A stretch of DNA of 64,000 bases from Psammoneis japonica. Its lineage: Eukaryota. The position numbers were made by a program, and so were the translations under genes. Shown here one piece after another: positions 7,401-58,486 of the stretch. Location: positions 62,001 through 126,000 of the forward strand of contig QPGO01000146.1 of the NCBI GenBank assembly GCA_008632985.1, given 5' to 3'. The notes under the pieces were generated by a model, which saw only the letters and a program-made list of their open reading frames with translations, was not told the DNA's origin and did not search any database. The first letter of the stretch is position 1; each line of letters begins with the position of its first letter.

Positions 7401-7650
7401 ATCCTTTGCTTGATTGTTGGGCATGGTGGTGTTTTCCTTGTTGGCATTGGTGGTGGCCTTGTCTTTTGCTTGTTTGTTGGCAGCATCAAAGGCATCGTTG
7501 ATGAATTGACAAATTTTCAGCTGTGATGGACTGGAATCTGGAGAGGTCAGAAGTCTCTGTGACTTCTCATCCAAGCTCTTGTTGCTTGAGCTGCAAGCGG
7601 GAAGTCCTTCTTTGTTCTTGCACTTGTGGCTGGCAGCAGACACAAGAGGC
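4500..7650 (-). mobile_element. Degenerate non-LTR retrotransposon with RT and C-terminal restriction-like endonuclease (CRE-like clade); ends approximate
   Basis: Minus-strand remnants QLCAGLETGIEGSVHAM, FLFVNASDCFNE, EGVVQGNPLSM, PWHADDSAG (YADD box, 6022-6033), CDGCNCKFSMQHAL...HNKIQDEL zinc finger, GDLSARG...DVGVADT RLE motif, CGFVNAR near the 3' end; many frameshifts. Confidence 0.8.
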
Positions 7651-9133
7651 GCATGTGTGGTCGGTCATGTTTGAAGCATGAACAACCACACGTTTGGTGG
7701 GTTGACCACAAGGTGCAACTGCAGCATGTCTCTCTGCTTGATTGCTGCTCCAGACAATTTTTTTGTAATTTCTTGTGCAGGTGGCAGAGAATTGTGTTGT
7801 GTGTCTTTTTTGATTGCCACATCCACGCCATTTTTCTGGAAAAAAGGAGCAAAACGACAGATGACAATCACATTTGCACATGTGTCGCAGAGACTGCAAG
7901 ATGACCAGATGGGTCCACTCTGCTGGCTCTGCTCTCTGGCAGCCACTCTAGAGTGGAGGGCCTGCTGGTGGAGAGATGACATGCAAAGTGTTGTTGTTCT
8001 CTTGGTTGGGGAAACCAGTGCATGTGCTTGAGAATGTTGCCTGCGTGGATGTGTCAGTGCCACACATCACACTCTGAGCACTGCACAGCCTCACACCAGG
8101 AATGGCCCTGACACACAATGGCCAAACCCGGATGGTCTAATTTTCATTGACTGCCAAAAGCAGTCTCCACGAGGAAGTGTGTGTGCCAGAGCAACAGACT
8201 GCTCCGGGTCAGCAGTCTTGGAAAATTGAAGCCGGCTCGTCCAATCTTCCAAAGCTGCTGCTTGCTGCACAATTTTCTGCATGCAGCAGGGGGACAAGTG
8301 GCTGGAACAATTCAACCAAAAACATCTTTTTTGCTCATTTGTCTGCCATCCACATTTCTCATGCTTTTTGAGTTGATGCAAATGCCTGGTGTGGGCCATC
8401 GTGGTGAGTGCACGGGCGGCTGCCAGGTCGTCAATGTTGATGTGGGAGATTGCATCATTGCACAAACATCTCTGTTGTCCCTGTTAGAAGGCATCTGTGG
8501 CATGACACAACTTCCCAGTTTTGGCTTGAGAGTGGGCATCTTGGCTCCCCTCACTCTCTCCTCTCAATGAGCATCACTTTGCTGTTTGCTGCCGCTGCTG
8601 CCACGAAGGTGCCCAAGACCTCACTGGCACCACCAGAGAGGCTCATGACAAGGTTCACTCATTCATTGAATGACTCGATGTCAACAAAGGTGACTTTGAT
8701 GGTGTGATCCCCAGAAAAAATGTCCTGGGCAGTGGGTCACAACAGAGGGATCGAGCAGCTCCTCCTTTGCATCCCTGGCATGCTCCGCGCTTTGGCAAAT
8801 TCCCACAATTTGGCCGCACATCATTTCATGTTGCATGTGGGCACAGCACCACACAGAGAGAAAACAAAAAAAGCTCACAGTCAGCAAAAGACAAGTGACA
8901 TCTGCCAAGCGGTGCTGGTGACGGCTGCTCCGGAGGGTGTTGCAAACATGAGGAGGGCGCAGCCACAGCGAAGGCACCAGGTCCTTCGTGATGACAGAGA
9001 GCTTGGATGCCGCAAATGGAACAAAGCAGTTGAAGTGCAAACTTCAACGTCTGTGTTTCCTCCTGCACCCAAGAGAGCCAACTCTTTCACTTCCAAAGCA
9101 CGAGCTGTGCTGTGGTCTTTCCCATGCATGCAT
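4550..9133. other. TpA-depleted hypermutated domain A
   Basis: About 7 TA dinucleotides seen by eye in roughly 4.6 kb, mostly TTAG/TTAA/CTAG/CTAA; flanks have normal TA frequency. Confidence 0.9.
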
Positions 9134-9783
9134 GTAATTATTTGGAAAAAATGCATTGCCCGCCTACGTACGATAGAGATCTTGCTTTTGCGCGATTACT
9201 GGAGCACAGTAACTTGAAGTTCAATATGAGATGACGTGGATTACCAAGCGCGTGGAAATCTATGTACGGACATTCGAAATTCTCATAGAGACAGTGACGT
9301 GTCAACAATTTGACAAAACATGAGAATCCTGGGATTCTGTCCTGAACAGAAATATTACCTAGTCTACTGTACCTTTCTACAGTGATACGGCACGTTCTCT
9401 GCGAAGGTGGAACAAATGCGAATTCTGACGTCCCGGAGAACAAGTCATTAAGTAATTTCCATGACGCACCCCATATTTCTAGATAACAAATGACATTGAT
9501 TTGCGAATTATTTAGATAGAAAGAAGTTATTCTTCGTGTCAGTCAAACGTCAGTCAAAAAGAGATAGCCAATCAAAACGCACGTCGCTCGATGCCGCTGT
9601 TCTTCACTCCGCAAAAGCTGCACCCTGCGACTTTTCTACGACACTTTTATACGGAGGAGCGACAGTAGATCGACGCTCAGCTTCAAGTTTCGCCCTTCTC
9701 ATTTTTCCCCTTTCGCTGCGAATCGCTTGAGAAGAAGGCCACTCTCATTTATTCCAAATCGCACTTGAACATCGCGATCACTC

Positions 9784-17090: not shown

Positions 17091-17529
17091 ACTTGTGGTT
17101 GGTCAAATTCGGAAGAAAAGGGATTGAACGGGATGAACTGCTTTTGGGGACACCGTCTTTATTGTTGTAAAATGTTTTACGAATTGGACAATAGTGTAGT
17201 TAGTATCGTACAAACTTCCCGGCGCCCATTACTTCTACTTCTCTCAAAGCTATGCGTAAAAAACGTTGTTGGTAAAAGTTATTGGACATGGGAAGCAAGA
17301 ACGTCATCAGCGAGATTTTCAATCTGACATTTCAAATATTTCAGAAAAAAATGCTAACGAGCATGCTCGTGAATGAGGAAGGGTGGGAGCTCCGTGTCAC
17401 GTAATGTCATTACGCATGATTTCCACAATTTTACAGTCGAGACCTTCTCTGCGTCGATCAGAGTTGTCAATTTTCCGAATCGAGAAGCTCTGAGGAACTA
17501 AACACATTTACGCAAGTTTCAGCAATGTA

Positions 17530-19908
17530 GTCTTCCATGGCTTGCCTGTGTTTGCCTCATTGCAGTGTTTTTTTGTCAAAGGAAGAGATGTGAGTTGACC
17601 ATGCTGGAAACTGCTTTCCACCATTGGAGTGGCAACCAGTGTGGATGTCAAGTGCTTCATTTGTCAAGTGGAACCCCAGATCAAATCTTCGTCCTCTTTC
17701 TCATGAACAGTGCTGGTGTGAACCATCTTGAAACACACAGAGAGCTGCGAGCCGGGAAATTTTTCAAGTTGGTGCAGTTGGAGCTGATGCCTCAACTGCG
17801 CTGTGTGTGCTCAATGTGAGCTCGTGGAAGCTCTGAGTTGACAAGCTTTCCAAAAAGCAGAGACTCCCTTGTTGGTGAAAGGATTGTCACGTGCCCAACC
17901 TGCACCAATGCAAGCTGATCCTTGTGCTGCAAAGCCGGCTGTTGACAGCAATGTCAACTTTCCATGTTTGCAACACATGCTCTTGCTTTGGACAAGAACA
18001 AGATCCATCAACAAGAGTCAAAGTGCTGTTCAGAAGAACAAGGTGACATGAGGTCACCACGGCAGCACAAGATTGACCTTGCAATGCCCAACAACAGCTC
18101 TTGAAATCTCATCTGGGGTTTGCCAGATGTGCTGTCAGCAATGTCCTCTGCTGCTGGCAGTTGTCAGGTTGGCAGTTGGTGCCACCATCATGGGATCCTT
18201 TCACTCTGGAGTTGGGAAACTCAAGTTTGCTGCTGCCAGGCAGGAATGAGGCAACATGGGAGTGCAACACCACACAACCAGTCTTGCAGTTCCCAACAAC
18301 ACCTCTCAAAAGTGCCACCTGAGGTCTGCCAGATGCTGCCAACAAAATCCTCAGCTTGCTGTTGTTGGGTTGGTTGGTGGGACTGGTGCTCCTCTCGTGG
18401 GGTCCTCAGACTCTGGAATTTGGAAACTCAAGTCTGCTCCTGCCAAACATGGCTTGCATGTGCATTTGCCTTGGTTGCAACTCTTTCATTGAATGAAGAG
18501 ATTTGAGTCACCCATGGTGGGAAGTGCTTTTTTCCCTTTCGGAGTTGCAGCTGGTGTGGATGTCAATCATTGCATTCATCAAGTGGGGCATCAAATCTTT
18601 GTTGTCTTTCTCATGAACAACACTGGCGTGAACTGTCTTGAAAGAGCATGCTTGACATTTTTCCAAGTTCAGCACAGTTGAGAGTCAATGCCCCAACCAT
18701 TGTTTGTGTGTTCAACGCAAGCTTTTAGAATCTCTGTGTTGACAAGCTTTCAAGAAAATGCCCTTGGGGCTAAAAAGATTGTCAGCTTCCCAACCTTTAA
18801 GCCAACAATGCAACATGCCAGCCAGTCTTTTCATTTTGCAAAGCCAGCTGCTGACAATTGACGACGTCACGTCCAGACACCACCAGGAGATTCTGGCTGT
18901 TTTCTGTTCATGCTGGACTTTGTGTTGTGGACAGCATGGGCAATGCTGATGTTGTGAAAGCTGTCAAGTTGACATTGAGAAAACACTGACAAGGCCAAAG
19001 AGTTGCCAAGCTTGGTGCACACAGCACAAGGCACCGTTGCCAACTTTGAGGCAATGCAAGTTTTTTGGACCCAAGCTGGACAAGCACTGGCTGTTCTTTT
19101 GGTTCAAAAGAGGGGTGTGTTCCAAACAGTCTGACACTTGACAATTTGCAAGACCTGACAGTGACCTTTGGGATCCCAGGCTTGATGCCATGATGGCAGG
19201 CTGCGATGATGCAACGATGCTCTCTTTTTGCACAGGGGGGGCAGGAAGAGCAGCACGTGCCTTGCTTGTGAGTCCCAAGGCTGTCTTTTTTATGTTGCAG
19301 AAGCACCTCCCAGTTTGCAAAGCTTGGCACTGGTGCAGTGCTTCCTCCTGCCTGACACTCTTTCTCTTGCTCTCTGCTCCACCAGCATGATGCAAGGAGA
19401 CAATCAGCTGCCAAATTGTTCTTGGTGTTCACACCCGATCGCCGATCTCGCACGAAAACGAGAACACCAAGCACAGTGATCAAAGCATGACGATGATCAC
19501 AATCATCAACATTTCTCAAAAATGCAGCATTTCATGCACAAACTTTTCATGTGTGTGAGATCTTTGATGCATGAAGAGCACAAAACAATGAGAGTTGGTG
19601 TGCGGACTGCCTCCGTCTCACAGTCTTGTGGCTTGCTGTTTTTCACCACGGTGAAGCACAGTGAAATTCAGGAAAAATGATGCAAAAAACAAGCTGTTTG
19701 GCTGAATTCGAGCTGAAAATGTGGCAGCCGACCATCCTCAAGTGGTGCACATTTGTGTTGCGCTGCTTTTTGTGCTTGTTGTTGACTTGCAAAGGTGTGT
19801 GTGACACAGTGCCCGCAAGCAAATTGTGGTTGTCATTGGTGCTGTGCACACACACACAGAAGTTGGTCTTCTTGTGGGGCCCTTCTGCTCTGCCGGTGCT
19901 GTGCTCTG
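17530..19908. other. TpA-depleted hypermutated domain B, with internal diverged duplications; origin not identified
   Basis: About 4 TA seen by eye in roughly 2.4 kb; 17641-17890 resembles 18557-18784, and 18195-18240 resembles 18402-18447. Confidence 0.85.
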
Positions 19909-20802
19909 CTCTACTCTAGAGCAGCTACGGCAGCTGGCAGCTAACTAGAGTAGAGAGCAGAGAGAAAACTTGCTGGCATGCGACTCGTTCGACCAGACTC
20001 GATTCTCGCCGATAATGACGTCGCTCTCGACATTTTTGGTAGGAACACACACGCACGACCAGTCAGACAACAAAATTGGCAGATCCACATCGGCGCGTCG
20101 ACGTTAAATTCGCTTTCAGAACGGTATACAAATTTATATTGTAAGTACGTTGTAGCTTGCCGTTGTGCCACAAGAAAAGCCCGCCCAAAAAATCAGAAAA
20201 ATAAACTATTTAGCCACAAATATATTAAAAATCAATTATGGAAATAGACATCTTCGTTGGGTTTAATGTATCATATATTTTCAGTATGGTTCAACAAGAT
20301 GACAAACATGGGAATAACAGCAACAATTCTCCGTTGAAAATCAAACAGTAAATCTGCATCCTCCCTTTCAACCATATTACATTTTTTAAATTATATTTAA
20401 CTTTATTCTCGAATACGTTGAATAGTCCGGCAGGTATGCCAAAATTCCGAAAACCATCGAAATCACGCCTCCCACAAACACCCCACTGCCACGTTGTTCA
20501 CTCATTTACTTCTCATAATCCAGACGCACCTCTCATTTTATCAGTCTCAAGAGGTGAGTAAGGGTCTGCCAACATGGCTTGATGCCTCATGGTTGCACTT
20601 GTGCATTATCCATTCTGTCTCTTGCGTGGGATCAGTGGAGGATTGGGAGAGCTGTGGGAACGGCGACGGCGTTTGCGGAGAGGTCATGACGGTCATGGCG
20701 AGCGCGCACCTCTCTGCTCAGGTTGAGAACTTTTGTGGATTGAAGAATACTTGACCTCACTGATGTTTCTTGTTGCCTCTCATTCTCCTTAGAAATTACA
20801 AA

Positions 20803-26033: not shown

Positions 26034-26899
26034 CTACTCCTAGGCCACAGAGATGATTGTACAGCGACGGGTAAATCAACCTCTGATGAAAAGGTATGGT
26101 AGCTTCAGCGGGATGCACAAACTGCTTCAGAAAATATATTATCTGGTTGGAGTTAGCCACTTGGTGCTCTTACTCTCGATGATGGTCCTATGGAAGCCAG
26201 GACTCGTGATTGACATCAACTCGGAAGACACAAACAGCAACGACAGTATGTAACAGACATCCAAGACCCAAACAGATGAGGCATGAATCTGAGGGGGTGT
26301 GATGCAGGCTGGGGTCTGCGTGTCCTGAATAATTTTCTTTGCGAACAAATTGATAATCAACAAAAGCTAAAAACTCGACAACAGAAGAGATTCATTAAGT
26401 AATTCTAATCCAATATATATAAACCTGTATAAGGATTAATACCTACGATCGACCGGCGCAGGATCATTATGCCTCTGAATGACTTGTCTAAACGATTGGC
26501 ATTTACTGAGCCCCTTTTTACTTCTTAAGTGAATGAATAAATAGGGAATGCTCAGGGCGATGTTGGTCTTATCCACGTCATGAGGTGGTTGGAAAATGAC
26601 TGCATAGGGGCTATTGACATATTAATGACTCTCCAGCACGAATAAGTTTAAATCCAAATTGGGTCTTGTTAGGACACATGCGGTAGCGTTTTTCTGTCCT
26701 AAAGAATGTTGAGCATCCTACGTGGATGGGATTGAACAATTTGATCATTAACAGCCCACCCGCCTTTGTCATTTCGCTGCCTTGACAAATCGGCATGTCC
26801 ACTGTCATCAAAAAGTGAATGATGATGCATTGTGTTGCTGTGCAATCACAATCACACATTTCTCAGTGTGGTCCGATTTGATTGTACATTTTTCTACTC

Positions 26900-28150
26900 A
26901 GCTGTGTGTGCATTTTCACATGATGAGCTGCCCCCTGAGCAGATGCTGCTGCACAGCACACAGGGCAAAAAAATGGGACTCTGGAGGGCCTTGCAGATGG
27001 GTGGGGGGGATTCTCTCTTTTTTCCAGAACAGCAGTGGAGCCACTCACAAAGTCAAAGTGCTGCTTGGTGCTGGAGCTCAGATTTTCCCCAAGAAAGTGT
27101 GAGAAAAAATTGAGCTCCTCCCAGCAGGGTGCGCCCACACACCTTTGTGACTTGTTGCGCGCACAATGTGGTCAAAGCTGCAATGTTTGGTCACTCAACT
27201 TTGTTCACAACACATGCTCTGTTGCTCAAAAAACATTTGCACAATGCACTCTCCAAAGCACACACAGCACTGCAGCAATTGTCACCAAAATTGCTCAATG
27301 TGCCTCTCTGTGATGTTGCTGCAGTGCTTGCCCAAGCTGCTTGGCACAAAGCATGAGCATCATGATCCCTTCCAGCAAGCGGGCATTTGGTTTGTCATCA
27401 TCTTTTGGTTGGCTCTCCATGCAGGCTCTCAACAGAAAAAAAAGCCAGTTCATTTTGCTGGCTGGAGCCCCAAACATGTGCAGGCTGCCCTGGCTTCAAA
27501 ACAATCTGATCTTTTTCATGGCAAATGTTTGTTTTGTGCCCCCCACCTCAAACACACACCCAGACCAGCTTGAGCAACTCTGTTCCCTCCCACCTTGTTT
27601 TCCATCACAGCTTGAGCAGCAACTTTGTTCCTCCCCACCTTGTTTTCCATCGCACACCACCTTGGGGTGTGGCCAAATCTGGGGAGCCCCACTCCACATT
27701 CTCACAGTCTGTTTTTCATGAGCAGTCATCCACCCCAAACCATGGTGACAGGAGGCAAGCATGGCAAGAGAGCCCATCAGCTTTCAGCAATGCCAGGCCT
27801 CCCCAGCACTGGGTGCTCACCTTCCCCTCCTCCAGCATCTGATGCTGCATTTTTGCCTGCATTGGCATGTTCTCCTGCGCCAGCTCTTCCCCGAGCAGCT
27901 CCTGCTTGCTCCAAATTGCAAAGAAATGAACAACAAATCCCCTTGGCTTGTCATCCAGTCTCTGTCCGCTTCCTGCAAAATTGTTTTGCTGTGGATTTCG
28001 GCAAAGTTTTGGGTTTTGAGGGGAACATGGAAATCTCGCAGTCTCCGAGAGAACGCCCCTGTTTGCCACATGCTGAGCATTCGACAAGGTCAAAACAACA
28101 AGTCTCAGTGCTTTAGATCACTGCAACCTTGAGATTGGACATGTTCAAGG
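26900..28150. other. TpA-depleted hypermutated domain C
   Basis: Only one TA (TTAG near 28113) noticed in about 1.25 kb; contains a 2-copy 42/45-bp tandem repeat at 27566-27653. Confidence 0.8.
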
Positions 28151-42568: not shown

Positions 42569-44062
42569 TCAAAACTGCTGTTCAAATAAGATTCCGGTGT
42601 ATGTCAACGTTGCGATTGTGAACCGAACACATGCACCTTTCCTAACAGACTTTTCATGCGCAATGTGTTTTCAAACGAGTGTTAGTATCGCACGACCAGT
42701 ACCTCGTGATGCCTCTTTTTGCTTTCTCGTTTGTGTTCCCTCCGCGTCAGTCTTGTCCAATCACGTTTGGCGCGCAAATCAACGTTACGCGGGCAAAATA
42801 TTTCAATAGTTAAAAATTTCGAAATTTCAATCTATGTATTAAGCGATATATGATTAGTATGAAAATGCGAATTTTTTAACGGGGAGTAGTATTACCATGC
42901 CTGCTACTGTTGCTTGAAACTTTCATTGACTATTCATGATATATTTATGGAGGTCTTTCACATTTTTTCTTTATCAGCCATACTCGTTTTCCCGCCAAGT
43001 CTTTCTGGCATTGATACTTTTAGTATCCTAAAAAAAGAGGCACATTTGCCGCGGCTATCGCTCAAAACGACCCGATCCGGGACATACTTCTCGTGCAATT
43101 TCACGGCATTCTTCGATCGTCGTGACACCCGGGTTCCGACATTGGTGTCTATCCATCTCACATGACATGGACGGTTAACGCTGCATTAACGTTGATTGTG
43201 TTCAATGAAACATACTGAGCGAAGTCGCAGCCGATACTCCGATGTGTACGACACGTACTTCGGAATGGCACATGGTTCATCTGCAAGTACCGGTACGCTG
43301 GGCTGCACGTAAAACTGTTTCACCTGCCACCTCTTATTCTAAACCCAAAATTGGTCAAATTAAAATTTTGAGCACACCTTACATCCAAAATCGACCATTT
43401 TCTTTCGATCTGTCGGCGGACCTAATGCGAAAAACGATCAGAAAGTCGATTTTTCGACACAGCTGGTTTTCGAAAACTCAAAACAGACCCATTCTGCTGA
43501 TTTTCGAGAATGGGTCCGCCGACAGTTCATTTCCTTATTGTTTTTAGTACAAATATGCGCAACTATCGACCGAAAATTCCAAGTATTTGGTTTCGAATAA
43601 GCACTTTAGTCTTATTCGCTTTCGCCCGTAGGAACCATACTGTTTCCTACTGACGGTGTCTCTGAACGCACGAAATGACCCCGTTATGTACATCCTAAAT
43701 GTCATATATAAATATATGTACACGTCATTTCATATGAATACCTACGTAAAATGTACATCACTTCAACTTTGATCGTTTCTAGTTCACTCTAAACATCTAC
43801 CAGAGACCACGGTAAAGGCACCGTTGGAAAGAGCAGATTCTCAGCTTTCCATCGATGTGCCGTTTGTTCCCTGCGTACGATTTGAGCTGGAGATACAGTC
43901 GTGGCAGTCCAAGCGGTTTTATGTCCAGCACAGCGTAAGCGGTAACGAACAGCAAACCAAACGCCAACCTGAAGAAAAGAGATGGATGATCCGAATCAAG
44001 AATCAAGAAGCCGCTGCTGGAAAATGTAAGAAAAGCCAAATCTGTGTTTCTTCTAAACAACT

Positions 44063-44926
44063 TCAAACCGTCCACCGTCCAACAATGTCGCTTTTCAGAT
44101 CCGCCCTGGATTTCATCAGGTGCATCAACAAATTGCAAATGTTGCGACAATCATCAATGCCAGAGTGATGATGGCCTGCCAATGGCAAGTTTTCCTTGGC
44201 AAGCATGCTTTTCATGCCCCCGCCCTTGCGAAAGGGCGGCAATTGCGCAAAGGTCCGTTCAATGTTGATCCATGCGTGATGGACGGCGGGAACCGTCACC
44301 ATTCTGGCCAACTGCAGCTGTTGAGGAAGGCACGTTGCAAGATCCCAGTCGCCGCAGGTTGCAATCACGACGGAATGCAGTGGTTTGCCATGTGGATCAC
44401 CGTCTTTGTCAACGCAGGACGCCAGCCAGTGAGCGTGTTCCTGAAGCGCTTGAGGAAAGGGTGCTCCGCGTTGATTGATGGTTTCTTGCATGATGCCAGT
44501 CAGTTCAGTGCAAAAGGGATGCAGTTTCGGATGGAGTGATGGTTTGCAATGGCGCTGAAACTCAGCCACGACGGTGGCGTTCTGGGCTCCACCCCGCACA
44601 TCCAGCAACACAGACGGCAGTTCAATCACTTCCTGTTGCGATCTGGGCACGTTGCCGCCACAGGTGGCTTCGAAATCCAACACGCAATAAAAGTCCACAT
44701 GTCTTGTAGAGTTGGTGCCGACGTGTTGGGGAAAGCCCCAAGACGGCGGCGATGGCCACGCCTGAAAATCTTGCGGCACACGGTTCATCCAGTTTGGCGG
44801 TGCTCCCGCTACGATTGGTTTCTTCTTGGCGGCGGATGCCTTGTTGCCGCCTTTTCCCTTTGTGGCACCTCTCCTTTCCTTTTCTTTCTTTCCGTGTTGC
44901 TGCTTTTGTGCTTTGTGTTCGTCCAT
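44063..44926 (-). pseudogene. ERI1/ERI3-like DEDDh 3'-5' exoribonuclease, ORF open but hypermutated
   Basis: VLDFEATC, EVIELPSV, FCTELTGIMQ, TCGDWDL, WINI, GHHHSGIDDCRNI; only one Tyr in the 350-aa ORF; GIMQ and GHHHSG depart from the usual GITQ and GRHHSG. Confidence 0.75.
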
Positions 44927-45127
44927 GGTGCTTGTTCTTTGTGCAGATTGTAGATTGGAAGTCGAGAAGCTTGTTCTCAGCGTGGGTTGCTTTTTGATGT
45001 TTTGTGGCGAGAGTGGTGAGGTCGCACGATGAACAACTGGCGCACGTCTGAATCTTGCTGCGCACTCAAAGGTGGCGCGAATGAAAGAACAAACAAGAAG
45101 TAGAGTCGCTTCCACAGAATGACACCA

Positions 45128-46500
45128 AGCAGAGACATTTCATGTTTGGTTTGTGTCTGCAAGTCACGTTTGTGCCAGAGGGCGTGAAAACTGCGCCTCC
45201 CATCAATGCTGCAAATTCTGACAAACGCAACCCGTGAACTGCACTCTAGCTAGAGTGCGCTGTTGCCAAGGTTTCATCTGATGTGCGTCATGCATTGCGA
45301 ACGCACCAGATCTTGAGTCTTGAGTCTCGATGATTCCCGCCTCTGTGTCAGAGTCTCTGTTGTTTTGAGCACGTTCGCTGCCTCCCCCCACTGGGAAATG
45401 TCAAGTGAAACTCGTCCAATTGATTGATGAACAGAGCATGCATGAAGATTCGAGTCCAATCTGACACAAATCCAAAACCCCTAAATGCCTCCATCACATG
45501 TTCCAACTGACCCCACTCAACTTGGCCACTTCTTGGATTCAATGCAAAACCAAAAGCACACGGCATCTGAGAAATGACAAACCAGCACTCCACAATCATT
45601 GGAGATTGAGACATGATGGTGCCGCATCCGGCGTGATGTCCTCCTCGAGTTGTCACAACATTGAACATTTGGAGAATCTTTAGAACTGGGAGACTGTTCA
45701 CTGCATTTCCAAGTTTTTTCAGACACCAAAAGTTGGGATGGACGATCCGCATGAGTGTGACAGTGGCAACTGATGGGAGCGTTGAAATGCACAGAGGCGT
45801 CATGAGGCTGGCTCCGGGTCGACGGCCAACATTGACAATGGGGGCCAGCCATGTTTGAAAAATGTGTGGAGAGTCAGAAAACAGAGAAAGGTGTGTCCAA
45901 ATTGCTGCAAAATGCCCAAGGCATCGGCAAGGACATGAAAGTGAAGCTAGATCTGACTGTCTTGTTCAGAAGCAAACAAACAAGATTGACAACTGGCATC
46001 CCAAACAAGAGCTTCTTGAATGAGCGCGAAAGCTTTCCACTCATTGCACAGGCGTTTTGGTCAACACACTGTCAAGAAAGCAATGAAACTGCCACACCAC
46101 CCCAGATCAAAAGTCTTTTGGTTGTCTCACTTGCAACAATTGCAGCTCCTCAAAACTTTGGAATGAGAAAATTGCGAAGGTGATTCCGACGATGCAATCA
46201 CTCATCATCATCACCGCGAGTGTTGTGAGTTGTTAAAGAAGCACGACTTGTGGCTGATTGTGCAATTGCTCTTGATTTCGTTCATGTCCATCACCAAGAA
46301 GATGCAAAGCAGCTTTCAGAGATCATCCTTGTGTTGTGCGCCCATGTTGACTCAGAGTTTGCTCCTGTTCCAACCACGTCAGCCAGCCTGGCAATCAGGA
46401 TTTCACCACCTCACCAAACAGCATCAGATGAGAAGGAGGCTCAACTCTTGACCCAGCACCACCAGCCTTGGGCAACTCATGCTGTGTCCACTTGCTTCCA
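45128..46500 (-). pseudogene. Hypermutated, frameshifted duplicate of the locus at about 57037-58370
   Basis: Colinear similarity over about 1.3 kb, e.g. MTPLCISTLPSVATVTLMRIVHPNFWCLKKLGNAV vs MTPLYVSTFLSVAAVILVRTVHPNFWCLRKLGNAV. Confidence 0.95.
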
Positions 46501-48089
46501 GACCCAATGACCTCAATGTCACTTGGGTCACTGGCCCAAGATCTCATGGTGTGGTGGACTTTGTGGGCCTCACTGCACCACTCCAAGGTTCATGTGCTCA
46601 CACCACACCCTGTGCAAAGAAGCCACAAACCTCCACCTGCACATGCTGCCACACTCCACCCACCCACCTGGAGTGCTGTCTGGCTTGACACAGTGAGTGT
46701 GCTCTTCTGCTTTGAGCACCCCCTGCTCTGACGCCACTGGTGCAGAGACACAAAGATGAAGCTGCTGCACTCTCACCTCCAAGCACACACAACCTTTTTT
46801 TTGTCAACCTTGCTGTTTTCCTTTGTGCACCCTGCCGCCCAAGTGGCTTGTCATCCGGCAAGCTTCAGAAGCTTTGGAAAGCAGCCACGGCCTGCCCACC
46901 TTGCTCACAACCTTTCTCCCACATTTGCAACCATGTGCTCAACAGCAAGCCGGGCTGGGCCAAACAGTTGTCTGCCACAGCCAACCCCACCACCTTGGCG
47001 GTCCTTTGTCTTTTTTTGCAACCTGACAGCACATCTCCAACAGCCCCCAATTTCATCCTGTGGTGCTGCCAACATGGAGGCTGCCAAAAGGGAGGGAGAC
47101 AGAGAGAGAGAGAGACAAAGTGCACAGCACATGAGCCCAAACACATGAAGTGTGCATGCCCTGCAGCCACTGCAACTTGGATCTTTTTGACACAACAGAT
47201 TCAATCATGTCAACAACACTGAACAGCATCATGGCTTCTGATTGAGCCACTGCAAAAGTCTTGCTCCCAAGGACTTTGGCCAATGCCGCTGCACTTTCTG
47301 GCGCATCTGTGTGACTTCAACAAATGCCCAGCTGGCCGCTGCTGTGTTGTGGACTTGTTCCAGACTTCTTGGGTGTGCACATTTGCAAAAATGCCCCCTT
47401 TTGCATGAAATGTGCAGTCCAAACTTTCAGCACAATTTTCAGCAGTCAAAACATGACAATTTTTAAGTGTGCCATGGGTCCATTGGTCGCCAAATCACGC
47501 TGCAAGATGAGAGCTTGGTTTTCTGTTGTGCAATGTTTGTGGTTGCAGCCATGTGCAAAGAGAAAGACACAAATCAATGCAAACAAAACATTCACAGACT
47601 GGTGAGTTTCAAAAAATGTGAGAAGAAGTGAAGCTCAGCCCATGCAATGGCATTGACTTCAAACCCATTTTTGCTGCTTTGTTGGCATGAACGACTGGTG
47701 CACCTGTGCCTGTCAACACCATGGAGGAAATGCACATGGCGACAGAAAAGAAATGGCTCTCAGAGGCAAATTGTGAGCACATTCATTGTTGCCATTGATG
47801 CCACAGACACTGAGTGTCAAATGTGCTGCGGAGGTCCTTGTCATGACATTCAACTTTTCACGAGGTTGAAAAAAGCAGGCCACCATGGATGCTGAAAGCT
47901 GCAGCCATTTTGGCTGTGAGTTGGTTTGAATTTCATCTGTTTTTTTTCTTGCAAGCTTCCAATGTGGTCAATTTGACAAAAGAATGTTGCGCCAATGTTG
48001 AGCAAAGCAGGGGACATTTGTTTTTTGTGTGAAAAGGGGCACGCACGTGGTGCCACCCAAGTCTGGAACAAGTGTGTGGCTGCTTGCTT

Positions 48090-48710
48090 GCTTTTCATTT
48101 GCCTTGCAATTGACAGATGACAAAATTGACCTCAAGCATGTCCAACTCACAGCACACAAGATCTTTTTGATGCAGAGGCAGCTGTGGGAGGGGGCGCCAT
48201 AGAAATCATGTAGAGACGAATTTTCTTGGATCAAAACGAGAGTTGCCGATGTCGACAGAGGGTGTTGCGGCGGTCTTAAAATGGGGGGTGACTTTTTCAT
48301 TTGCCTTGCATTCGTCGTTGATGAGATCAATGAAGTGACCGCCATTTTCCCGTGCTTTGCCATGCAGTCACGACTGAAAATGTCTCGATTTTTCTAAAAT
48401 CCTGCCGTCACTCGTTTGCAGTTTTGGAATGTTGCTGCAACTTTTGTCATGCCAATGCTGGCCAATGTCAAAAGCAGAGGCTCTTGCGTCTCTAACAACG
48501 CATCTCTGCCAAGTCACCTGACTCCGCAGTTGGAAAGAACGTGAAATGGTGCTTTTGTTGCTTTTGCCGCACTTCACCGTGCAATCACGACTGAAAATCC
48601 TTGATGTCTCGTTTGCAGTTTTGGAATGACATTGCGGCTGTTGTGATGCCAAAAGTGACTGACATCAAAAGCAGAATCCATCACATCTCCAATGATGCAT
48701 CTGCCACTTC
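48090..48710. repeat. Degenerate tandem repeats of about 200-220 bp
   Basis: ttttcatttgccttgca at about 48092 and 48294; tcacgactgaaaat...ctcgtttgcagttttggaatg...tcaaaagcaga...gcatct at about 48368 and 48585. Confidence 0.6.
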
Positions 48711-48859
48711 AGCTGTCTCTGCAGTTGCAGAGAATGATCAATGGCATCTTTCTCTCTTTCGCCACACTTCGCCATGTGCAAAAATCCACCGAGTGCCAAT
48801 GCACGCCCATTTCGCGGTGGAACTGAGTTCTCATTTCAAAGCACAATGAGCTCTGCCAT

Positions 48860-49530
48860 TTTGTTCTTTCTGCTTGTCTGTTCAGGACATGATTCTTTGC
48901 AGCTTCTGATGTTGGTGTTGGCAGAGGCGGTTCGATGGCAGGTTTGGAGATGACTTTGTCATGAGAGAATGCAAGGCGTGGCTTGTTTGCAGGTTTGCCA
49001 TGGGGCTTCCAAGGCAGAGGCAAGCCCTTCTTTCTGGCATCAATGCGTGCTCTTTTGAACGCTGTTTGCTTTAGCATCTCGTCTGTCTCATCCTCGGTCT
49101 TGTTGAGTGCAAAATTCTCGCATGGCACCCTCGTGTCATCATCCAATTCATCAACAGCAAGCACTTCCTTCGCATTCATGACACCAAAATCCATTCCAGA
49201 CTCAAGGATTGCGTGATTCAAGAACACGGCATGAATTGATTCGCGGATTTTTGTTGCTCCTCAGAATCCAAACGAAAGGTTCGAACTGCCGCCGACAACC
49301 TTTGCACGCAGACATTGTTCCTTGACAGTCTTTGTTTTTTGCGTCAACAAAGTCGACTCACAGTTGGCGTGTTCCTCCATGCCGGTGCCAACCGTCAATG
49401 CATTGGGATTGCACACAATGTCTGCGCCCACTTCGTGCATGTCACATGAGCGCTTGCATGTCCAAACCTTGTCCTCCCAGGTCGCTGCTTGTCCTTGTTC
49501 GTCAAATGCCATGACTGCTGCCACAGCACC
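48860..49530 (-). pseudogene. METH: Fragment of cobalamin-dependent methionine synthase (pterin-binding domain), inactivated
   Basis: KHGAVAAVMAFDEQGQAAT...KRSCD...NPNALTVGTGMEEHANC...GGSSNLSFGF*GATKIRESIHAVFLNHAILESGMDFG..NAKE; in-frame TGA at 49261-49263 where FRG is expected; internal deletions. Confidence 0.85.
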
Positions 49531-50126
49531 GTGTTTCTCCAACCATGTCCAACCCCCCACTGCTTCCACAACATGCCTCTCAGTGGCGATCTTCCTGTTG
49601 ACATGGCTGAAAACGCAGTGTTGGAATGCTTGTTGCTTGTCGTGAACTCGGAATCAATCGCGAGCCTGAGAGCCCAAAAATCCTTTTCTCAGAGCTTTCA
49701 TCATGACAGCAAGTTGTTTGCTGACAGATTGAGTCTCTGTGGTCTTCATTTCCAGCATGCGACAAAACTGTTTCTCGTGAAGGTGCCATTTGGATGACGG
49801 CATGATGTTCAGATGAGATGTGAGGTCATTCGCAGACATTTCAAAATTGCTCGATGAAGCTGCCACCAAAAATCATGCTTTGGAGCCCCTTGCCCAATTC
49901 GACAATGGCGGACATGATGGCATCAAATGCACATCTTTTTGTGTTGATCCTGAGGGCACGAAAGCGATGTGGTGCAAAACGGCATGTTTGTTGGTCAGGC
50001 ATCGACATTGTTTTTAACATCTCAACCAAATCATTGTTCGAGACAGCCCCTCGCAGCATTCCACCCAATGAGATGATGGCGGATGCAGCACTTTGAAGGG
50101 GCTGTCTGAAACAGTGATTCTGAGGG

Positions 50127-50400
50127 TGACAGAAATTGAAGGCAAATGGCAAGAACTCAAACAATGGCTCCTTGCTGCTGTCTAAATGGCAGATGAGTCT
50201 CCACTCAGAGACCGTTGCAGGAGCCGAAAGACGTGCAAGTCGGCACAACCGGGCTGCTGTCATCATTCTTGTGAGCCTTGTGGCTCAAAAGCAAACTGCA
50301 TCGCGCGCAAACACACGGAACTAAAGCACACAAAACCGTGCGCGGCAAACTGTGCAGTGTGCGACATTTCGCGCACCCAAATCCTGCTCAAATCCTGTCA
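50127..50400 (-). repeat. 3' LTR (274 bp)
   Basis: Matches 53699-53975; begins TG and ends CA. Confidence 0.9.
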
Positions 50401-50944
50401 CTCCCCAGTTTGCTTGAAGAGTCACAGAAACAGATTCAACTTTGGATTGACTAAAGAACTTTGGAGTCAAAGCACCAAAACATGAGGAGAAAAGAAAGGA
50501 TCAGGATCCTGGAGCAACGCTGCATTCTCCAAGTGGGTCATCTTGAGATGAGCTGCGTCTCCCCAATTGTAGATGCCGTTGTGCTTTTCAAAGCTCAAGG
50601 CACACTTGGGATCTTGTGGGATTCCACATCCGCACTTGCAATGGAAGGAGCAAAGCTTGGTCTGGTTGACAATGTTGAACGGCGGGGCAACATCGCAGGA
50701 CAATGCAAACAAGTTGACATCGCCTTCACTTCCTGAGCGAAGGTCGTAAAGACTGATGGCCGTCTGTTGGTTCTTGGAGTGGTTGCCACACTGGGTTGCT
50801 GCCAGAAAAACAGAGCAGTGCTCATGCAGGGTGGCATGGCATTTGCATGACTTGGGGAACAGAGCAAGCATGAGTTCAAAGGCACAAGCGGTGGTCTTGT
50901 GTTCCACCAATCCGATTGCAAGCTCAGCTGCATCTCCTGAGAGA

Positions 50945-51935
50945 CTGATCCAATTGGAGAAACGAGTCTCAAGGTGCAAGCCTTCGGGGATCGGATTGGA
51001 GCAAGACATCTTGTGGTGCAAGGCTGCAGATGTCTGATTGGGGCAACCAGTCCCGTGCTGCAAGACTTCTGGGATCCAAAAGGACTTGCCAGTCTTGTGA
51101 CACGAGTCTTCGGGGATCCAATCAGGAGGCCAAGTCTTGAGGTGCGAGACTTGGGGGATCCAATCAGGAGGCCGAGTCTCGTGGCGCAAGACTTGAGGGA
51201 TCCAATCCGGAGGCCGAGTCTTGAGGTATGAGACGTGGAGGATCCAATTGGGAGGCCCGGTCTCGAGGCACGAGACGTGGAGAGTCCAGTTGGGAGGCCT
51301 GGTCTCAAGGCACGAGACTTGGGGCATCCGATCAGGAGGCCCAGTCTCGATGTACGACACTTGGGGCATCCAATCAGGAGGCCCAGTCTCGAGGCACGAG
51401 ACTTGAGGCATCCAATCAGGAGGCCCAGTCTCGAGGTGCGAGACTTGGGACATCCAATCAGGAGACCTGGTCTCGAGGTACGAGACTTGGGGCATCCAAT
51501 CAGGAGGCCTGGTCTCGAGGTACGAGACTTGGGGGATCCAACCAGGAGGCCCAGTCTCAAGGCACGAGACTTGAGGCATCCAATCAGGAGGCCTGGTCTC
51601 GAGGTACAAGACTTGGGACATCCAATCAGGAGACCTGGTCTCGAGGTACGAGACTTGGGGCATCCAATCAGGAGGCCCAGTCTCAAGGCACGAGACTTGG
51701 GGGATCCAACCAGGAGGCCCAGTCTCGAGGCACGAGACTTGAGGCATCCAATCAGGAGGCCCAGTCTCGAGGCACGAGACTTGAGGCATCCAATCAGGAG
51801 CCGTGGTACGAGACTTGGGGCATCCGTCAGGAGGTGGCTCAAGGCACGAGACTGAGGCATCCAATCAGGAGGCCTGGTCTCGAGGTGCGAGACTTGAGGC
51901 ATCCAATCAGGAGGCCTGGTCTCGAGGTACGATGC
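50945..51935. repeat. Tandem array of roughly 23-24 units of 42 bp (14 codons, PPDWMPQVSxLETG on the minus strand)
   Basis: Unit ccaatcaggaggcccagtctcgaggYRcgagacttggggcat; homogeneous at about 51120-51930, degenerate toward 50945. Confidence 0.95.
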
Positions 51936-53683
51936 TTGGAGGATTCGAAGACAATGAAGCTGCTTGGATGTCCTGAACTCCCCATCTGATGAACCGGTTG
52001 AACTGTTGTGAACAGATTCAATGACGGGAAAAGGAGGCTCCCCATCAGGAGATGCGAGAAGCAAGTTGTCATCTCCATCACTTCCCAAACGAAGACTGTG
52101 AAGGGTGACAGTGGTCGACACGTGGAGGTTGGCAGCACGTGGTTTGCGGGGTGCAAAAACTGCAGCTTTGGAAGCCATGGGTGGAGTGTCCCAACTGGTC
52201 TCGAAGTGCGGGCCTGCGCAAGGGCTGCGGTCCTGCACTGGGCCGAGGTTGCTTGCAGGCAGGTTGGTCAAGACATGCGGGGCGCGACTGACACCACTTC
52301 TGGGGGACACCTGAGTGGTGGCACAGTGCAAGGCTGGTGTCAAAATGGCACTGGGTTCACCTGGTTTGGATGGCAAGGGACTCGGCACAGGTGCGGAGGG
52401 TGCTGCGCCAGTGGCCAGAGAGGTCAAGCAGTCCGGACCAAGGTGGCAGTTGCGAAATTCGTCGGGTGTGAGCAACTGGGGTTCATTGGTCACATCATCA
52501 CCATTGCAAACTTTGACAAAGTAGAAGCTGATCAAAGCTGCCAGGAGGTTTCTGTGGGTCCGTGGCAAAGGCACTGCATTGGCGCCGTCTCTGTGAGTGA
52601 GGGCGTCAATTTGGGTGGGTGAGAACGTGAACAATTCCTCACACGATTCAATCCCATTGATGGACAGGGCAGAACAAAGAGGGCTGTCATTGTCTTGATT
52701 GAGCACAGTGCCTAGAATGCATTTGAAGCTTTCGATTTGTTGCTGTTGCGTGAGAACCGTGACGGAGGACGGTGCAGCAGAAACAAAAGACAGGAGCCAA
52801 TCTAAAGCGCGATCTTGACTCGGAGTTTTGACTTGGAACTTGGCTTGAAAAAGACTTGACTTGAAATCTTGAACTATCTTAAAATCAGAAGTCGCCGGGC
52901 TGTGGTGTCCCGTTCGTTGTTGAGTGCTAAACTTCCCATCCGGTCCGCAGAGTTGTGCCGGCACGTCCGAACCCGAAACTGGCGGCGCTTTGGGTTGCTT
53001 GCGAGCGGAGCAGCGGGTTGTAAACCCCTGCAGGCAAGCTGACTGGAGGTGGACAAGACCCCCGAACCGTTCTTATTTTGTGTCGGTTGGATTTCCCGAT
53101 CAGGCTGGCCAGTTGACGCAGGCGTTGGGCGCTGTGGACGAACGAACAAACGCGGGAAAATACCCTTGCCCCAACGTAGGCTGCAGTCACGGCTGCTTGC
53201 TCTCACAGTCGTCCTCGTGGACCTAGCAGAATTGTAGAGCACCAGTAGTCTGGGGTAGATCAGGTACAATAGATTCGGCGTGCTTGTAGAGTGGCAGCAA
53301 AGCCGTGGTCCAAAGAGTGGGTTCAAGTTCTTGGCCGTGAAGATGTGTATATATATATGTCTTCAGCGACGTAGACCCTTGAATATGTAGGGTTCTTGAC
53401 CGTTAACCGTTGAATGCGTATATCAAGGGATGAGGATCAAGGATAGACTTGGATATAACCGTTGAATGTATGTCTCGAGCGATGAAAAGTAAGTATAATC
53501 AATCCAGACATGCAGCGGTAAGGAGACTTGACGGTGACGTTAAATTCCTGCCGATGCCTGGTATTGAATGCGCGTAGACTTGCCGATGTACGTAGAACAT
53601 ATACGGAGGTCCACGCAGAATTGAAATGGCGTCGTCGGTAAATCAACGACGACGATGGCGGTTGCTCAATGGGTTGACAATGA

Positions 53684-53698
53684 GCAAGACTGTTAATC
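53684..53698 (-). other. Candidate primer-binding site complementary to a tRNA-Asn(GUU) anticodon arm
   Basis: Plus strand GCAAGACTGTTAATC abuts the 5' LTR; GA-CTGTTAA-TC has the form of an anticodon loop with GTT; no TGG-type PBS present. Confidence 0.5.
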
Positions 53699-53975
53699 TG
53701 ACAGAAATTGAAGGCAAATGGCAAGAATTCAAACAACAACTCCTTGCTGCTGTCTAAATGGCAGATGAGTCTCCGCTCAGAGACCGTTGCAGGAGCCGAA
53801 AGACGTGCAAGTCGGCACAATCGGGCTGCTGTCATCATTCTTGTGAGCCTTGTGGCTCGAAAGCAAACTACATCGCGCGCGAACGCGCGGAACTAAAGCA
53901 CACAAAACTGTGCGCGGCAAACCAAATGGTGCGCGACATTTTTGTGCGCACCCAAATCCTGCTCAAATCCTGTCA
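53699..53975 (-). repeat. 5' LTR (277 bp)
   Basis: Matches 50127-50400; retains more CG and one more TA than the 3' LTR. Confidence 0.9.
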
Positions 53976-54845
53976 GAGGGCACGAAAGCGATTTGGTGAG
54001 AAACGGCAGTTTGATTTGGTGGTCGCTCAGCGAACGTTGTGGCGGGAGTTGGAAGCCCGGCCTTGCGCATTGTGGCCGCACGTCGAGTCTTGTAAGTCAT
54101 GGTGATGACACTTTTTTTTTGTCACGACGTTGACGACCGCCACGCCATGGTCTGTTTGGGCAGAGAGGTTGATTTCACTAAAAAAAACAGCACCTGCGTG
54201 ATTTCTGCGGCGTCCCCACCCATGGCAGCACTCACCATGTCAACAACAGCAGTTGGCTGGGCTGCTGACAAGGCCAGCACCACCTCAAAAGTCTCGCTCC
54301 TGACTTTGGCCCACAACATTGTGCCTGCCACACCTGTGCAGCTTGGCTAGAGCAGGATTCATTCGAGTTAGTTCGTTCGTTCGAGCAAGAGAGACATTCG
54401 TTCGTGCGAGTGGAGGTTTAGATGCATGGCCACCAGCTGCCGCCGGCCACCTGCACACAATCCGAACCCTGCCCTGTACCGGTATGATACGGTAGATAGA
54501 CACGACTTCAAAAAAAATAGAGAAAAGACACATACAATTCTTTTTGCACACAAAAATGTATGTGTGTTGTCATAAAAAAATGTGTCTTTTCTACAGTGTA
54601 AAGTAGTATCGGTACTCAACATTATGTCTGCCATTAATTGACTGTTGCTGGCAGGCGCGATTCGCGCCAAAAATGTCCCAGTAAAGACACGAATTTCGAC
54701 GCAGAACCATATCCATATCTCCAAAAAAGATTTTGTCCCAGTCCCGACATCACATCACATGTGAATTATTCGGCGAAATTGCGAAGCCTAAATCTCCATA
54801 TCATCACACAATCGCGGTCCATCATTGTAGAACGACGCTGCAGCA

Positions 54846-56803: not shown

Positions 56804-57205
56804 TAAGCACGGCGTACATAGTTAATTAAAAGCAGATATGCATCTTGTACGACTTCATTTCTATTGGTAGCTGTTGTTCCTTGTATGATATCTTGCTAGA
56901 TGGGCGACCGCAAGCCCCGCAGTCTGCCGTTGGATAGCCACTTCTGGGACGATGTTATAGGCCAGACAACGCAATGTGACATAAAAGCCTTTGGCATGGC
57001 AAATGAGATACAAACTTTGAGTCGTTAATTTACAAGAAGTAGAGACATTTCATGTTTGGTTTATATCTACAAGTTACGTTTGTTCTATGAGGGCGTGACA
57101 ACTGAGACTCTATCAATGCTGCAAATTCTGATGAACGTACCCCGTGAATTGCACTCTCTAAAGTAGACTAATACTAAGGCTTCATGATCTGAAGTACGTT
57201 CTGCA

Positions 57206-58039
57206 TTACGAACGCACCAGATCTTGAGTCTCAATTCCCGCCTCGGTGTCAGAGTCTCTGTTGTTTTGAGCATGTTCCCTACCTCCCCCACTGGGAAATG
57301 ACAAGTGAAACTCGTCCAATTGATTGATAAATAGAGCATGCATAAAGATTCGAGTCCAATCCGACACAAATCCAAAATCCCTAAATGCCTCCATCACGTG
57401 TTCCAACTGACCCCACTCGTCTTGGTTGCTTCTCGGGTTCAATGCAAAACCAAAAGCACATAGTATCTGAGAAATGATAAACCAGTATTCCACAATCATT
57501 AGAGATTGAGACATGATGGTGCCGCGTCCGGCGTGGTATCCTCCTCGAGTCGTCACAACATTGAACATTTGAAGAGTCTTTAGAACCGGGAGACAGCTCA
57601 CTGCATTTCCAAGTTTCCTCAGACACCAAAAATTGGGATGGACGGTCCTCACGAGTATGACAGCGGCAACGGATAGGAATGTTGAAACGTATAGAGGGGT
57701 CATAAGACTAGCTCCGGGTCGACCGCCAATGTTGATAATGGGAGCAAGCCATGTTTGAAGAATGTATGGAGTCAGAAAACAGAGAAAGGTGTGTCCAAAT
57801 TGCTGCAGAATACCCAAGGCATCGGCAAGGACACGAAACTGAAGTCGGATCTGACTATCTTTCAGAAGTAAACGAACAAGATTGACAACTAGTATCCCAA
57901 ACAAGAGCTTCTTGAACGGATACGAAAGCTTTCCACCTATTGCACAGGCGTTTCGGTCGACATGCTGTCGAGGAAGTAATGACACCGCCACAACTCCCCA
58001 GATCAATAGTCTTTTGCTTATCTCACTTGCAACAATCAT
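57206..58039 (-). CDS. Multi-pass membrane protein of unknown function; intact template of the copy at 45.1-46.5 kb
   Basis: 277-aa open ORF with several hydrophobic helices and normal TA and Tyr content. Confidence 0.7.
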   Translation of the reverse strand: MIVASEISKRLLIWGVVAVSLLPRQHVDRNACAIGGKLSYPFKKLLFGILVVNLVRLLLKDSQIRLQFRVLADALGILQQFGHTFLCFLTPYILQTWLAPIINIGGRPGASLMTPLYVSTFLSVAAVILVRTVHPNFWCLRKLGNAVSCLPVLKTLQMFNVVTTRGGYHAGRGTIMSQSLMIVEYWFIISQILCAFGFALNPRSNQDEWGQLEHVMEAFRDFGFVSDWTRIFMHALFINQLDEFHLSFPSGGGREHAQNNRDSDTEAGIETQDLVRS

Positions 58040-58486
58040 ATTCAGAAACTCTGCAATGCGAAATTTGCGAACGCGACGATGCGATCACTTCGCCGCGTGT
58101 GGTGAGTCGTGAAAAAAGCACGACTGATGGTCGCGCGATCGCTCTTGATCTCCTCATTCTCATCGCCAAGCAGATACAAAGCTGCGCTTTCAGAGTGATT
58201 TCGTGCCCATGACGACTCGGAGTCTACTCCTATTCTAAGTGAGTCAATAAGCCTGCCAAGCAGGATTTCGCCACATCACCAAAACAGCATCGGATGAGGA
58301 GGACATTCCATTGATCCGACAGCCTTGAGCAATGCATTACATCATCCCATTGTTTTTCTAGGACGTCAATGTTCCATAATCTTGTGATATAGATGACTGA
58401 AGGGCAGGAGATTAGAGTCACTTCTGTATCTCTTCTGCTGGTAGAGTGTGCGTTTGATTATTTGGTGCTTCGTCACACCACTGACA

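Follow-up and report, generated by a model that had tools for sequence, protein, structure and literature searches.

The window analysed here, a 64,000-nt stretch of the Psammoneis japonica genome (contig QPGO01000146.1; G000:C146:62001-126000 in our notation, from an assembly of 91.4 Mb in 597 contigs), contains four blocks, hereafter deserts, from which the dinucleotide TpA has nearly disappeared: its observed/expected ratio (o/e) is 0-0.2 in these blocks, compared with approximately 0.4-0.9 in the genic DNA of the window. The main desert is a nest of several older and inserted sequences, including a dead gene copy, a 1.95-kb multi-copy element and part of a Ty1/copia element (Table 1), and CpG is lost there together with TpA. 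We propose, with a probability of about 0.7, that two separate mutational processes act in the same silenced chromatin, sharing the domain and differing in chemistry. One is the decay of CpG to TpG/CpA at approximately 9-13 times the background, a rate that was measured and whose cause, judging from diatom biology, would be the deamination of 5-methylcytosine (5mC) placed by a DNMT5-type enzyme. The other is a TpA-specific mutator that turns T:A into C:G on both chromosome strands after insertion, favoring TA followed by C or T and being blocked about five-fold by a CpG directly 5' on the edited strand. Because of its 100-fold dinucleotide selectivity and its graded flanking preference, this mutator is probably enzymatic, most likely a putative deaminase that converts adenosine in DNA to inosine, which is then read as G, and that is directed to silent chromatin; the block at CG-TA may come from the 5-methyl group itself or from a protein bound to methylated CpG (mCpG).

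Table 1. Positions of the deserts and of the sequences nested in or related to them (window coordinates; LTR, long terminal repeat)
Feature	Position	Strand	Remarks
TpA desert, main	44054..52800	.	TA o/e 0.01-0.13; CG o/e 0.17-0.87 by sub-block
Second desert	4545..9135	.	TA and CG both depleted
Third desert	17528..19912	.	
Fourth desert	26895..28114	.	Zero TA in 1219 nt
Single-copy open exonuclease frame (RNase_T), desert edge	44063..45139	-	TA o/e 0.10, CG o/e 0.87
Dead gene copy of 57037-58303	45127..46437	-	TA lost 44/47, CG lost 30/55; two genome copies
Intact template gene	57037..58303	-	Open frame 57206-58084; TA o/e 0.55, CG o/e 0.95
Oldest sub-block, near end state	46438..48177	.	1 TA and 18 CG in 1740 nt
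1.95-kb multi-copy element	48178..50126	.	TA lost 58/62, CG lost 30/73 relative to the TA-rich natural copy L050
Captured METH gene fragment, source G000:C59	48880..49549	-	Stop CGA>TGA at 49261-49263
5-nt target-site duplication, left	50122..50126	+	Identical five letters at 53976-53980
3' LTR, deleted Ty1/copia element	50127..50400	-	Compared with the 5' LTR, 6-7 CG lost
Copia element body	50401..52800	-	TA o/e 0.11, CG o/e 0.53
Copia 5' part, spared by both processes	52801..53698	-	TA o/e 0.78, CG o/e 1.12
Copia 5' LTR	53699..53975	-	CG kept

TA and CG changes in the main desert

The dead gene copy can be compared with an intact template in the same window. All four CG changes from template to copy quoted in the preliminary description of the main desert are present in the alignment of 57037-58303 with 45127-46437, as are both CG changes quoted between the LTRs of the copia element. 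Out of 52 TA in the template, 3 are kept in the copy, 25 became TG, 18 became CA and 2 became CG, and out of 62 CG, 25 are kept, 17 became TG and 13 became CA. When the count is restricted to sites at which a pyrimidine-purine step was replaced by another, 44 of 47 TA and 30 of 55 CG were lost (Fisher p=6e-6), in agreement with the earlier statement that CG loss is partial and TA loss nearly complete. The CG loss is itself distinct from the background (p=4e-14), background transitions in this copy amounting to about 5-6% per base. The two dinucleotides converge on TG/CA because a single transition from either of them gives TG or CA.

The direction of the changes, from template to copy, is given by 39 homologs of the template protein (57206-58084), a protein of unknown kind whose organism-named homologs belong to the diatom Seminavis robusta: these side with the template at 16/18 TA-type and 12/13 CG-type non-synonymous differences, and split 12:10 (template:copy), with 3 ties, at the other non-synonymous differences. 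The 1.95-kb element carries a fragment of a host gene that we take, from its motifs, to be METH (methionine synthase). The change CGA>TGA previously given as the origin of its stop codon is right for the direct ancestor, since CGA is found in 8/9 sibling copies covering the site and TGA only in the copy of the window; the source gene has AGA at this position. At least six near-full copies of this METH-carrying element are present (L044-L048 among its loci), and the copy L050 (C47) was largely spared TA loss. In the LTR pair of the window 7 of 20 CG were lost, and since only 2-3 TA are present it says little on TA loss.

The main desert is not an assembly artefact, as it is held by the short-read contigs of run X1, which may be the same sample as the assembly, with 21 differences in 2766 nt compared with 5 in 4785 nt of the flank. 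Among the differences listed between X1 and the assembly (40 of 284), 25 fall in 44153-47534, of which 8 are of the TA/TG-CA type, 12 of the CG/TG-CA type and 5 of other types, which suggests that both processes have been recently active.

Co-occurrence of the two losses in copia copies

The joint behavior of the losses was examined in 60 copia stretches of the genome. For the TA-intact 5' region, 39 were taken from the 40 best among 415 candidates, and the other 21 stem from the 40 best among 956 LTR candidates. After the exclusion of 8 stretches without an LTR pair, 5 with N and 9 outside 6.7-7.5 kb, 38 copies were kept, which form two subfamilies, A (22 young copies) and B (16 older copies). 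TA loss ranges from 13 to 87% and CG loss from 1.4 to 28% among them, and the association between the losses that the preliminary description had expected across repeat copies is found (rho=0.78, p=7e-9), vanishing in the older subfamily B. The association persists when background transitions are controlled (partial correlation 0.52, p=0.001) and within subfamily A (rho=0.57, p=0.005), in which neither loss tracks the background significantly and the two track each other. After removal of copy and site effects, the regional residuals of both losses still covary in A (0.14-0.24, p<=0.008) and in B (0.12-0.18, p from <0.002 to 0.07). At most TA sites both products occur, TG in one copy and CA in another, in copia and likewise in the METH-carrying element; therefore, most TA events are independent and took place after insertion. 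Many copies of subfamily A (L128-L155, L175) keep a frame of 1600-1990 aa with half of their TA converted. Since TA loss cannot create TAA or TAG stops, dead copies can look intact.

Both losses also spare the same end of the element. In 49 LTR pairs, the sites kept in the 5' versus the 3' LTR numbered 196:45 for TA and 103:58 for CG (p=5e-4 for CG), and once group A was set aside for its possible selection bias, they numbered 49:27 and 76:47, respectively (p~0.01 each). Along 84 kb divided into 168 tiles, all 21 tiles with CG o/e <0.4 have TA <0.15, and 19/40 TA-poor tiles retain CG >=0.4, CG loss being nested inside TA loss. In the 23 copies in which body TA was compared with the TA or the CG of the flank, no significant relation was found (flank TA rho=0.35, p=0.10; flank CG rho=0.16, p=0.47). 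Two copies of subfamily B, L156 and L159, both located on contig C283, have lost 12.5% and 27% of their CG, respectively, a normal or high share, and only 22% and 44% of their TA, compared with a TA loss of 67-81% in the other 14 copies of B; the background of L159 is four times as high, and this copy may be older or atypical. C283 is possibly a region in which the TA mutator is weak.

Rates and end state

Expressed as hazards, TA conversion amounts to 0.70, CG decay to 0.040 and other transitions to 0.0022 per base in subfamily A, and to 1.2, 0.16 and 0.0063, respectively, in subfamily B. TpA loss is faster than CpG decay, as had been proposed, by 17 times in A and by 8 times in B, the latter being near saturation. 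TA loss is approximately 160 times the local background and CG decay approximately 9-13 times (0.040 vs 2 x 0.0022 in A; 0.16 vs 2 x 0.0063 in B). In four other repeat families TA loss exceeded CG loss in 12/12 pairwise comparisons. The two rates make up a two-speed clock, suited to dating young insertions by TA loss and old ones by CG loss.

The reverse change, TG/CA>CG, has per-site rates of 0.0028 in A and 0.0059 in B, which match those of A>G at AA or GA; therefore, CA is not a second target, and a CA>CG / TG>CG arm of the mutator is ruled out (2.4-3.4 per 1000, the level of AA and GA). A computed balance of gain and loss, with 237 TG+CA per kb, gives a CG floor of 9-16 per kb, and the oldest block of the main desert holds 10 per kb. 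The partial CG loss is thus explained by a slower process together with a floor maintained by the background TG/CA>CG changes. Outside TA and CG, A:T>G:C changes in subfamily A exceed G:C>A:T changes 1.8-fold (p=2.5e-4), which may reflect either gene conversion or a weak off-target action of the mutator.

Sequence context and the block at CG-TA

The context of TA conversion was modelled at 163 sites of the copia body in the 22 copies of subfamily A, with factors referring to the strand that carries the changed A. Conversion rises x3 with C or T at +1 and about x2 with any base other than A at +2, falls to x0.39 with T at -2, and is unaffected by C at -2 outside CpG (x1.1). Once context is fitted, the antisense strand has a factor of x0.81-0.85, so both strands are hit nearly equally. 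Per 1000 sites and strand, A>G changes number approximately 350 at TA, compared with 3.2 at AA, 2.5 at GA and 2.4 at CA. A CpG directly 5' of the TpA multiplies conversion by 0.17 (0.10-0.29) beyond the single-base terms, and this CG-TA term is the strongest of 60 dinucleotide terms in both A (x0.18) and B (x0.27), which are subfamilies of the same element and not independent. The raw counts in A are 380 allowed versus 58 blocked conversions at 36 CG-TA sites, beside 243:138 for TACC, 126:51 for TACT and 248:132 for TACA. The block is also found in the four other repeat families (x0.39, 0.21-0.67; 59:15), in a test with 642 conversions at 239 sites, 32 of which adjoin one CpG. The simplest cause of the block would be methylation at carbon 5 of the C at -2, or a protein sitting on mCpG.

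Relation to known systems

A process resembling the TA half of our observations has been described once. In Bigelowiella natans (B. natans), Mettrop et al. found 230/231 mutations to be A:T>G:C, all at TpA, in two viral inserts, and proposed ADAT2, which was left unproven, as the enzyme (10.64898/2026.01.13.699255). That hypermutation was seen de novo, at approximately 1000 times the genome rate (10.64898/2026.01.13.699255). In both cases A:T>G:C is confined to TpA and affects both strands (25 TG and 18 CA in the gene copy), acts in local domains that vary among copies and can include single-copy DNA, and leads to a long-term TpA depletion with gain of TG/CA. The host, here diatom-like, and the targets differ: viral inserts in B. 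natans, and here copia elements, the METH-carrying element, a host-gene duplicate and the edge of a single-copy gene. Whereas the B. natans mutations are de novo, ours are a fossil pattern that yields relative hazards, beside the differences between X1 and the assembly. In the main text of the preprint, the words 'CpG', 'diatom', 'mismatch' and 'context' have zero occurrences, and CpG decay, the rate ratio, the flanking preference and the CG-TA block do not figure there, contexts being given in its Table S2 (10.64898/2026.01.13.699255).

The CG half is ordinary. Hoguin et al. report that loss of DNMT5a in Phaeodactylum removes CG methylation, with transposable elements (TEs) as its main targets (PMC9998398), and DNMT5-dependent CG methylation is borne by diatom TEs (PMC9998398, PMC12344493). 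The CpG>TpG/CpA changes on both strands of copia-like elements observed here resemble the deamination of 5mCpG in such TEs, which accounts for the CG half only. The TA half is a variant of the process described in B. natans.

Fungal repeat-induced point mutation (RIP) also consists of domain-limited dinucleotide transitions on both strands, kills repeats and is tied to 5mC domains. The changes in the window are likewise domain-limited, dinucleotide-specific and present on both strands, but RIP is C>T and makes TpA from CpA, whereas TpA is destroyed here and TG/CA>TA was found at 0/173 sites of the gene copy; RIP also needs a repeat, whereas the single-copy frame at 44063-45139 is TA-depleted, though it borders repeats. 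TadA and ADAT2-3 deaminate A to I after U/T, with tRNAs as natural substrates, and TadA-derived editors prefer a following pyrimidine. Here too A>G is seen after T and a following pyrimidine is favored, in chromosomal DNA instead of tRNA. As far as our literature search reaches, most subscription papers being outside its coverage, the link between CpG and TpA loss, the rate ratio and the CG-TA block were not found, and the rate ratio, the shared sparing of the 5' end and the block are new.

Weighing of the explanations

Several points weigh against two separate processes in methylated chromatin. The copies are best BLAST matches and not a random sample, subfamily A having been chosen by its likeness to the TA-intact 5' region. 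Within the near-saturated subfamily B the two losses are not correlated (rho=0.18, p=0.5), and over the 49 LTR pairs the numbers of TA-type and of CG-type differences are slightly negatively related (rho=-0.25, p=0.09). We read both as TA saturation, since a pair in which each LTR has lost its TA contributes no TA-kept difference. One of the other families shows only a weak CG-TA block (12 allowed vs 9 blocked). The hindrance by T at -2 held in copia (x0.39-0.80; x0.39 in the full model and 0.80/0.66 with conversions only) and failed in the other families (x1.06), so that methyl mimicry, in which T at -2 would act like 5mC, is not established and a plain sequence preference is possible for the block. 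Sequence by itself fits a damaged A or a damaged T. Methylation is deduced from CpG decay, and the DNMT5 candidate consists of match positions only, a methylase match on C76 (292881-293144) and an SNF2 match 3.6 kb downstream on the same strand (296748-297380). A deaminase search of the genome gave 9 matches, none of which lies in a desert or shows a visible expansion; any eukaryote is expected to have ADAT2-like and TadA-like genes, and those found (L189 and L186, respectively) look like housekeeping copies that nothing links to the deserts, leaving the enzyme putative. Finally, TA sites close to a CG loss that is private to their copy show an extra conversion probability of -0.002 to +0.043, with p<0.05 in 3/10 tests: in A 0.016-0.023 at 50-100 nt (p~0.02), in B 0.043 at a distance of 10 nt (p=0.007). 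The null for this test is a within-copy shuffle, a copy-permutation null being off-centre (small p at O/E 1.00-1.06); the significant distances differ between A and B, and the excess fits a weak autocorrelation of 0.02 out to 400 nt.

The alternative that survives best is that the co-occurrence reflects age and silence only, the mutator following a cue other than 5mC (a histone mark, small RNA or the absence of transcription) and the block being a sequence preference. Its one difference from the two-process explanation concerns the role of 5mC, as cue or as passenger. It accords with the fact that both losses track background divergence across the 38 copies (rho=0.70 and 0.80), that TA is lost where CG is intact, including the single-copy open gene at 44063-45139, that the effect of T at -2 failed to replicate, and that the B. 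natans preprint, in whose main text CpG goes unmentioned, holds no methylation data (10.64898/2026.01.13.699255). Nevertheless, the partial correlation survives the control for background, the losses in A track each other and not the background, and the strong inhibition by C at -2 is confined to CpG, C being neutral there in other contexts. We consider a cue other than 5mC unlikely.

The preliminary description had placed the TpA mutator on methylated domains and suggested its coupling to the repair of T:G mismatches. The shared domain and the faster TA loss were borne out, methylation itself being deduced from the CpG decay; the coupling was not supported. Under such coupling, 5mC would deaminate, the T:G mismatch would be excised and an error-prone resynthesis of the polymerase eta type would turn TA into TG/CA, and the sharing of domains by the two losses, as well as the small excess of conversion near private CG losses, would follow. 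However, the dependence of TA conversion on the distance to the nearest CpG, which had been put forward as a check, was not found (site hazard rho=-0.07 and 0.003), nor was a dependence of the site hazard on the CpG count within 10-200 nt in the copia copies, and strand-resolved CpGs 3-25 nt upstream or downstream gave factors of 0.82-1.11, all intervals including 1. No clustering of TA conversions on the same strand was detected in the copia copies at lags of 1-3200 nt, the strand autocorrelation of -0.054 to 0.041 having no consistent sign and a null standard deviation of 0.006-0.058, below which a low per-patch error rate would hide. TA conversion is not raised next to or just 3' of a CpG: in CG-TA, the first A 3' of the C under repair is the least mutated (x0.17 and x0.24), so that the sole local effect of CpG is inhibition. 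The TA:AA ratio of polymerase eta is only few-fold, and AA is hit here about 100-fold less than TA, although the WA context includes AA. Noncanonical mismatch repair (ncMMR) with POLH in somatic hypermutation is a precedent, and the model behind the suggested coupling, as it makes A/T mutations at WA, with A:T transitions, a TA hotspot and domains of C deamination (PMC6423074). The present pattern differs from the ncMMR/polymerase eta spectrum in the sparing of AA, in the apparent lack of patch or strand clustering and in the inhibition by an adjacent CpG. In addition, the copies L156 and L159 uncouple the CG and TA losses, and B. natans showed one change other than A:T>G:C in 231 (10.64898/2026.01.13.699255). 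TA loss is not coupled to short-patch T:G repair according to these tests. A long patch that restores C would leave no CpG trace, and it could err only at TA and too rarely per patch to cluster; the distance test is blind to it because C is restored and there is one CpG per ~13 nt. TA loss is probably uncoupled from long-patch repair too, and the coupling as a whole is improbable.

A last group of explanations, namely RNA editing (ADAR/ADAT-like), reverse-transcriptase error during retrotransposition, GC-biased gene conversion, selection or base-calling error, would suit the many retroelements among the targets and, for gene conversion, the A:T>G:C excess outside TA, but it is largely refuted and very improbable, given that both strands are hit nearly equally, that LTRs identical at insertion now differ, that a single site can be TG in one copy and CA in another, that the targets include a gene duplicate and a single-copy gene, that short-read contigs carry the desert, and that gene conversion has no TA specificity. 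A UV photoproduct at TA and 6mA at ApT were dropped for their wrong spectrum or context, TAC being hit as well as TAT.

Meaning of the two proposed processes

The TpA mutator has so far been known from one preprint, with neither an established enzyme nor a targeting cue, and the present results tie its territory to that of CpG decay and make T:G repair an unlikely source. Its signature (TA followed by C or T favored, CG-TA blocked, AA spared) is one that any candidate enzyme must show in vitro, with both methylated and unmethylated DNA as substrate. Knockouts of DNMT5 are available in diatoms (PMC9998398) and would allow a test of the targeting, provided that the process occurs in a tractable diatom. 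More tentatively, and with less confidence than in the two processes themselves, one may imagine that a nuclear deaminase acting on adenosine in DNA is drawn to chromatin methylated by DNMT5 and forms there a second line of genome defence, a destructive one, editing TpA approximately ten times faster than 5mC decays and sterically blocked by a 5mC two bases upstream. If this were true, the CG-TA block would be a sequence fossil of DNA that was methylated while it was edited. As a separate observation, C5 DNA methylase matches L112-L114 (C301, C297) lie inside TA deserts, several of them with stops, and are possibly on mobile elements.

Other features of the window and of related loci

The assignment of the 50127-53975 element to Ty1/copia comes from an RVT_2 match, and the element is inserted near the end of the 1.95-kb element. 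A Pfam profile search gave no match for the template gene, the METH fragment or the 825-aa frame of the window. The exonuclease frame at 44063-45139 adjoins repeats though it is itself single-copy, and a contig of the short-read run X2 covers it with 42 differences in 1130 nt, perhaps representing a less mutated allele. In the first open frame of the copia element there is a tandem array of 42-nt units (50924-51944), where 8 TA survive, mostly in GGTACG. More TA-poor blocks lie immediately beyond both ends of the window (L075, C146:56500-58500; L076). The METH gene at G000:C59:130171-139081 (L073, L074) contains a 2.26-kb internal segment three times in tandem, the copies being 94-96% alike and mostly within one 1492-aa frame, for which a real duplication and an assembly error are both possible. 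An inverted pair (38094-38277 and 40540-40723) of 184 nt and 73% complementarity is located in DNA of normal composition.

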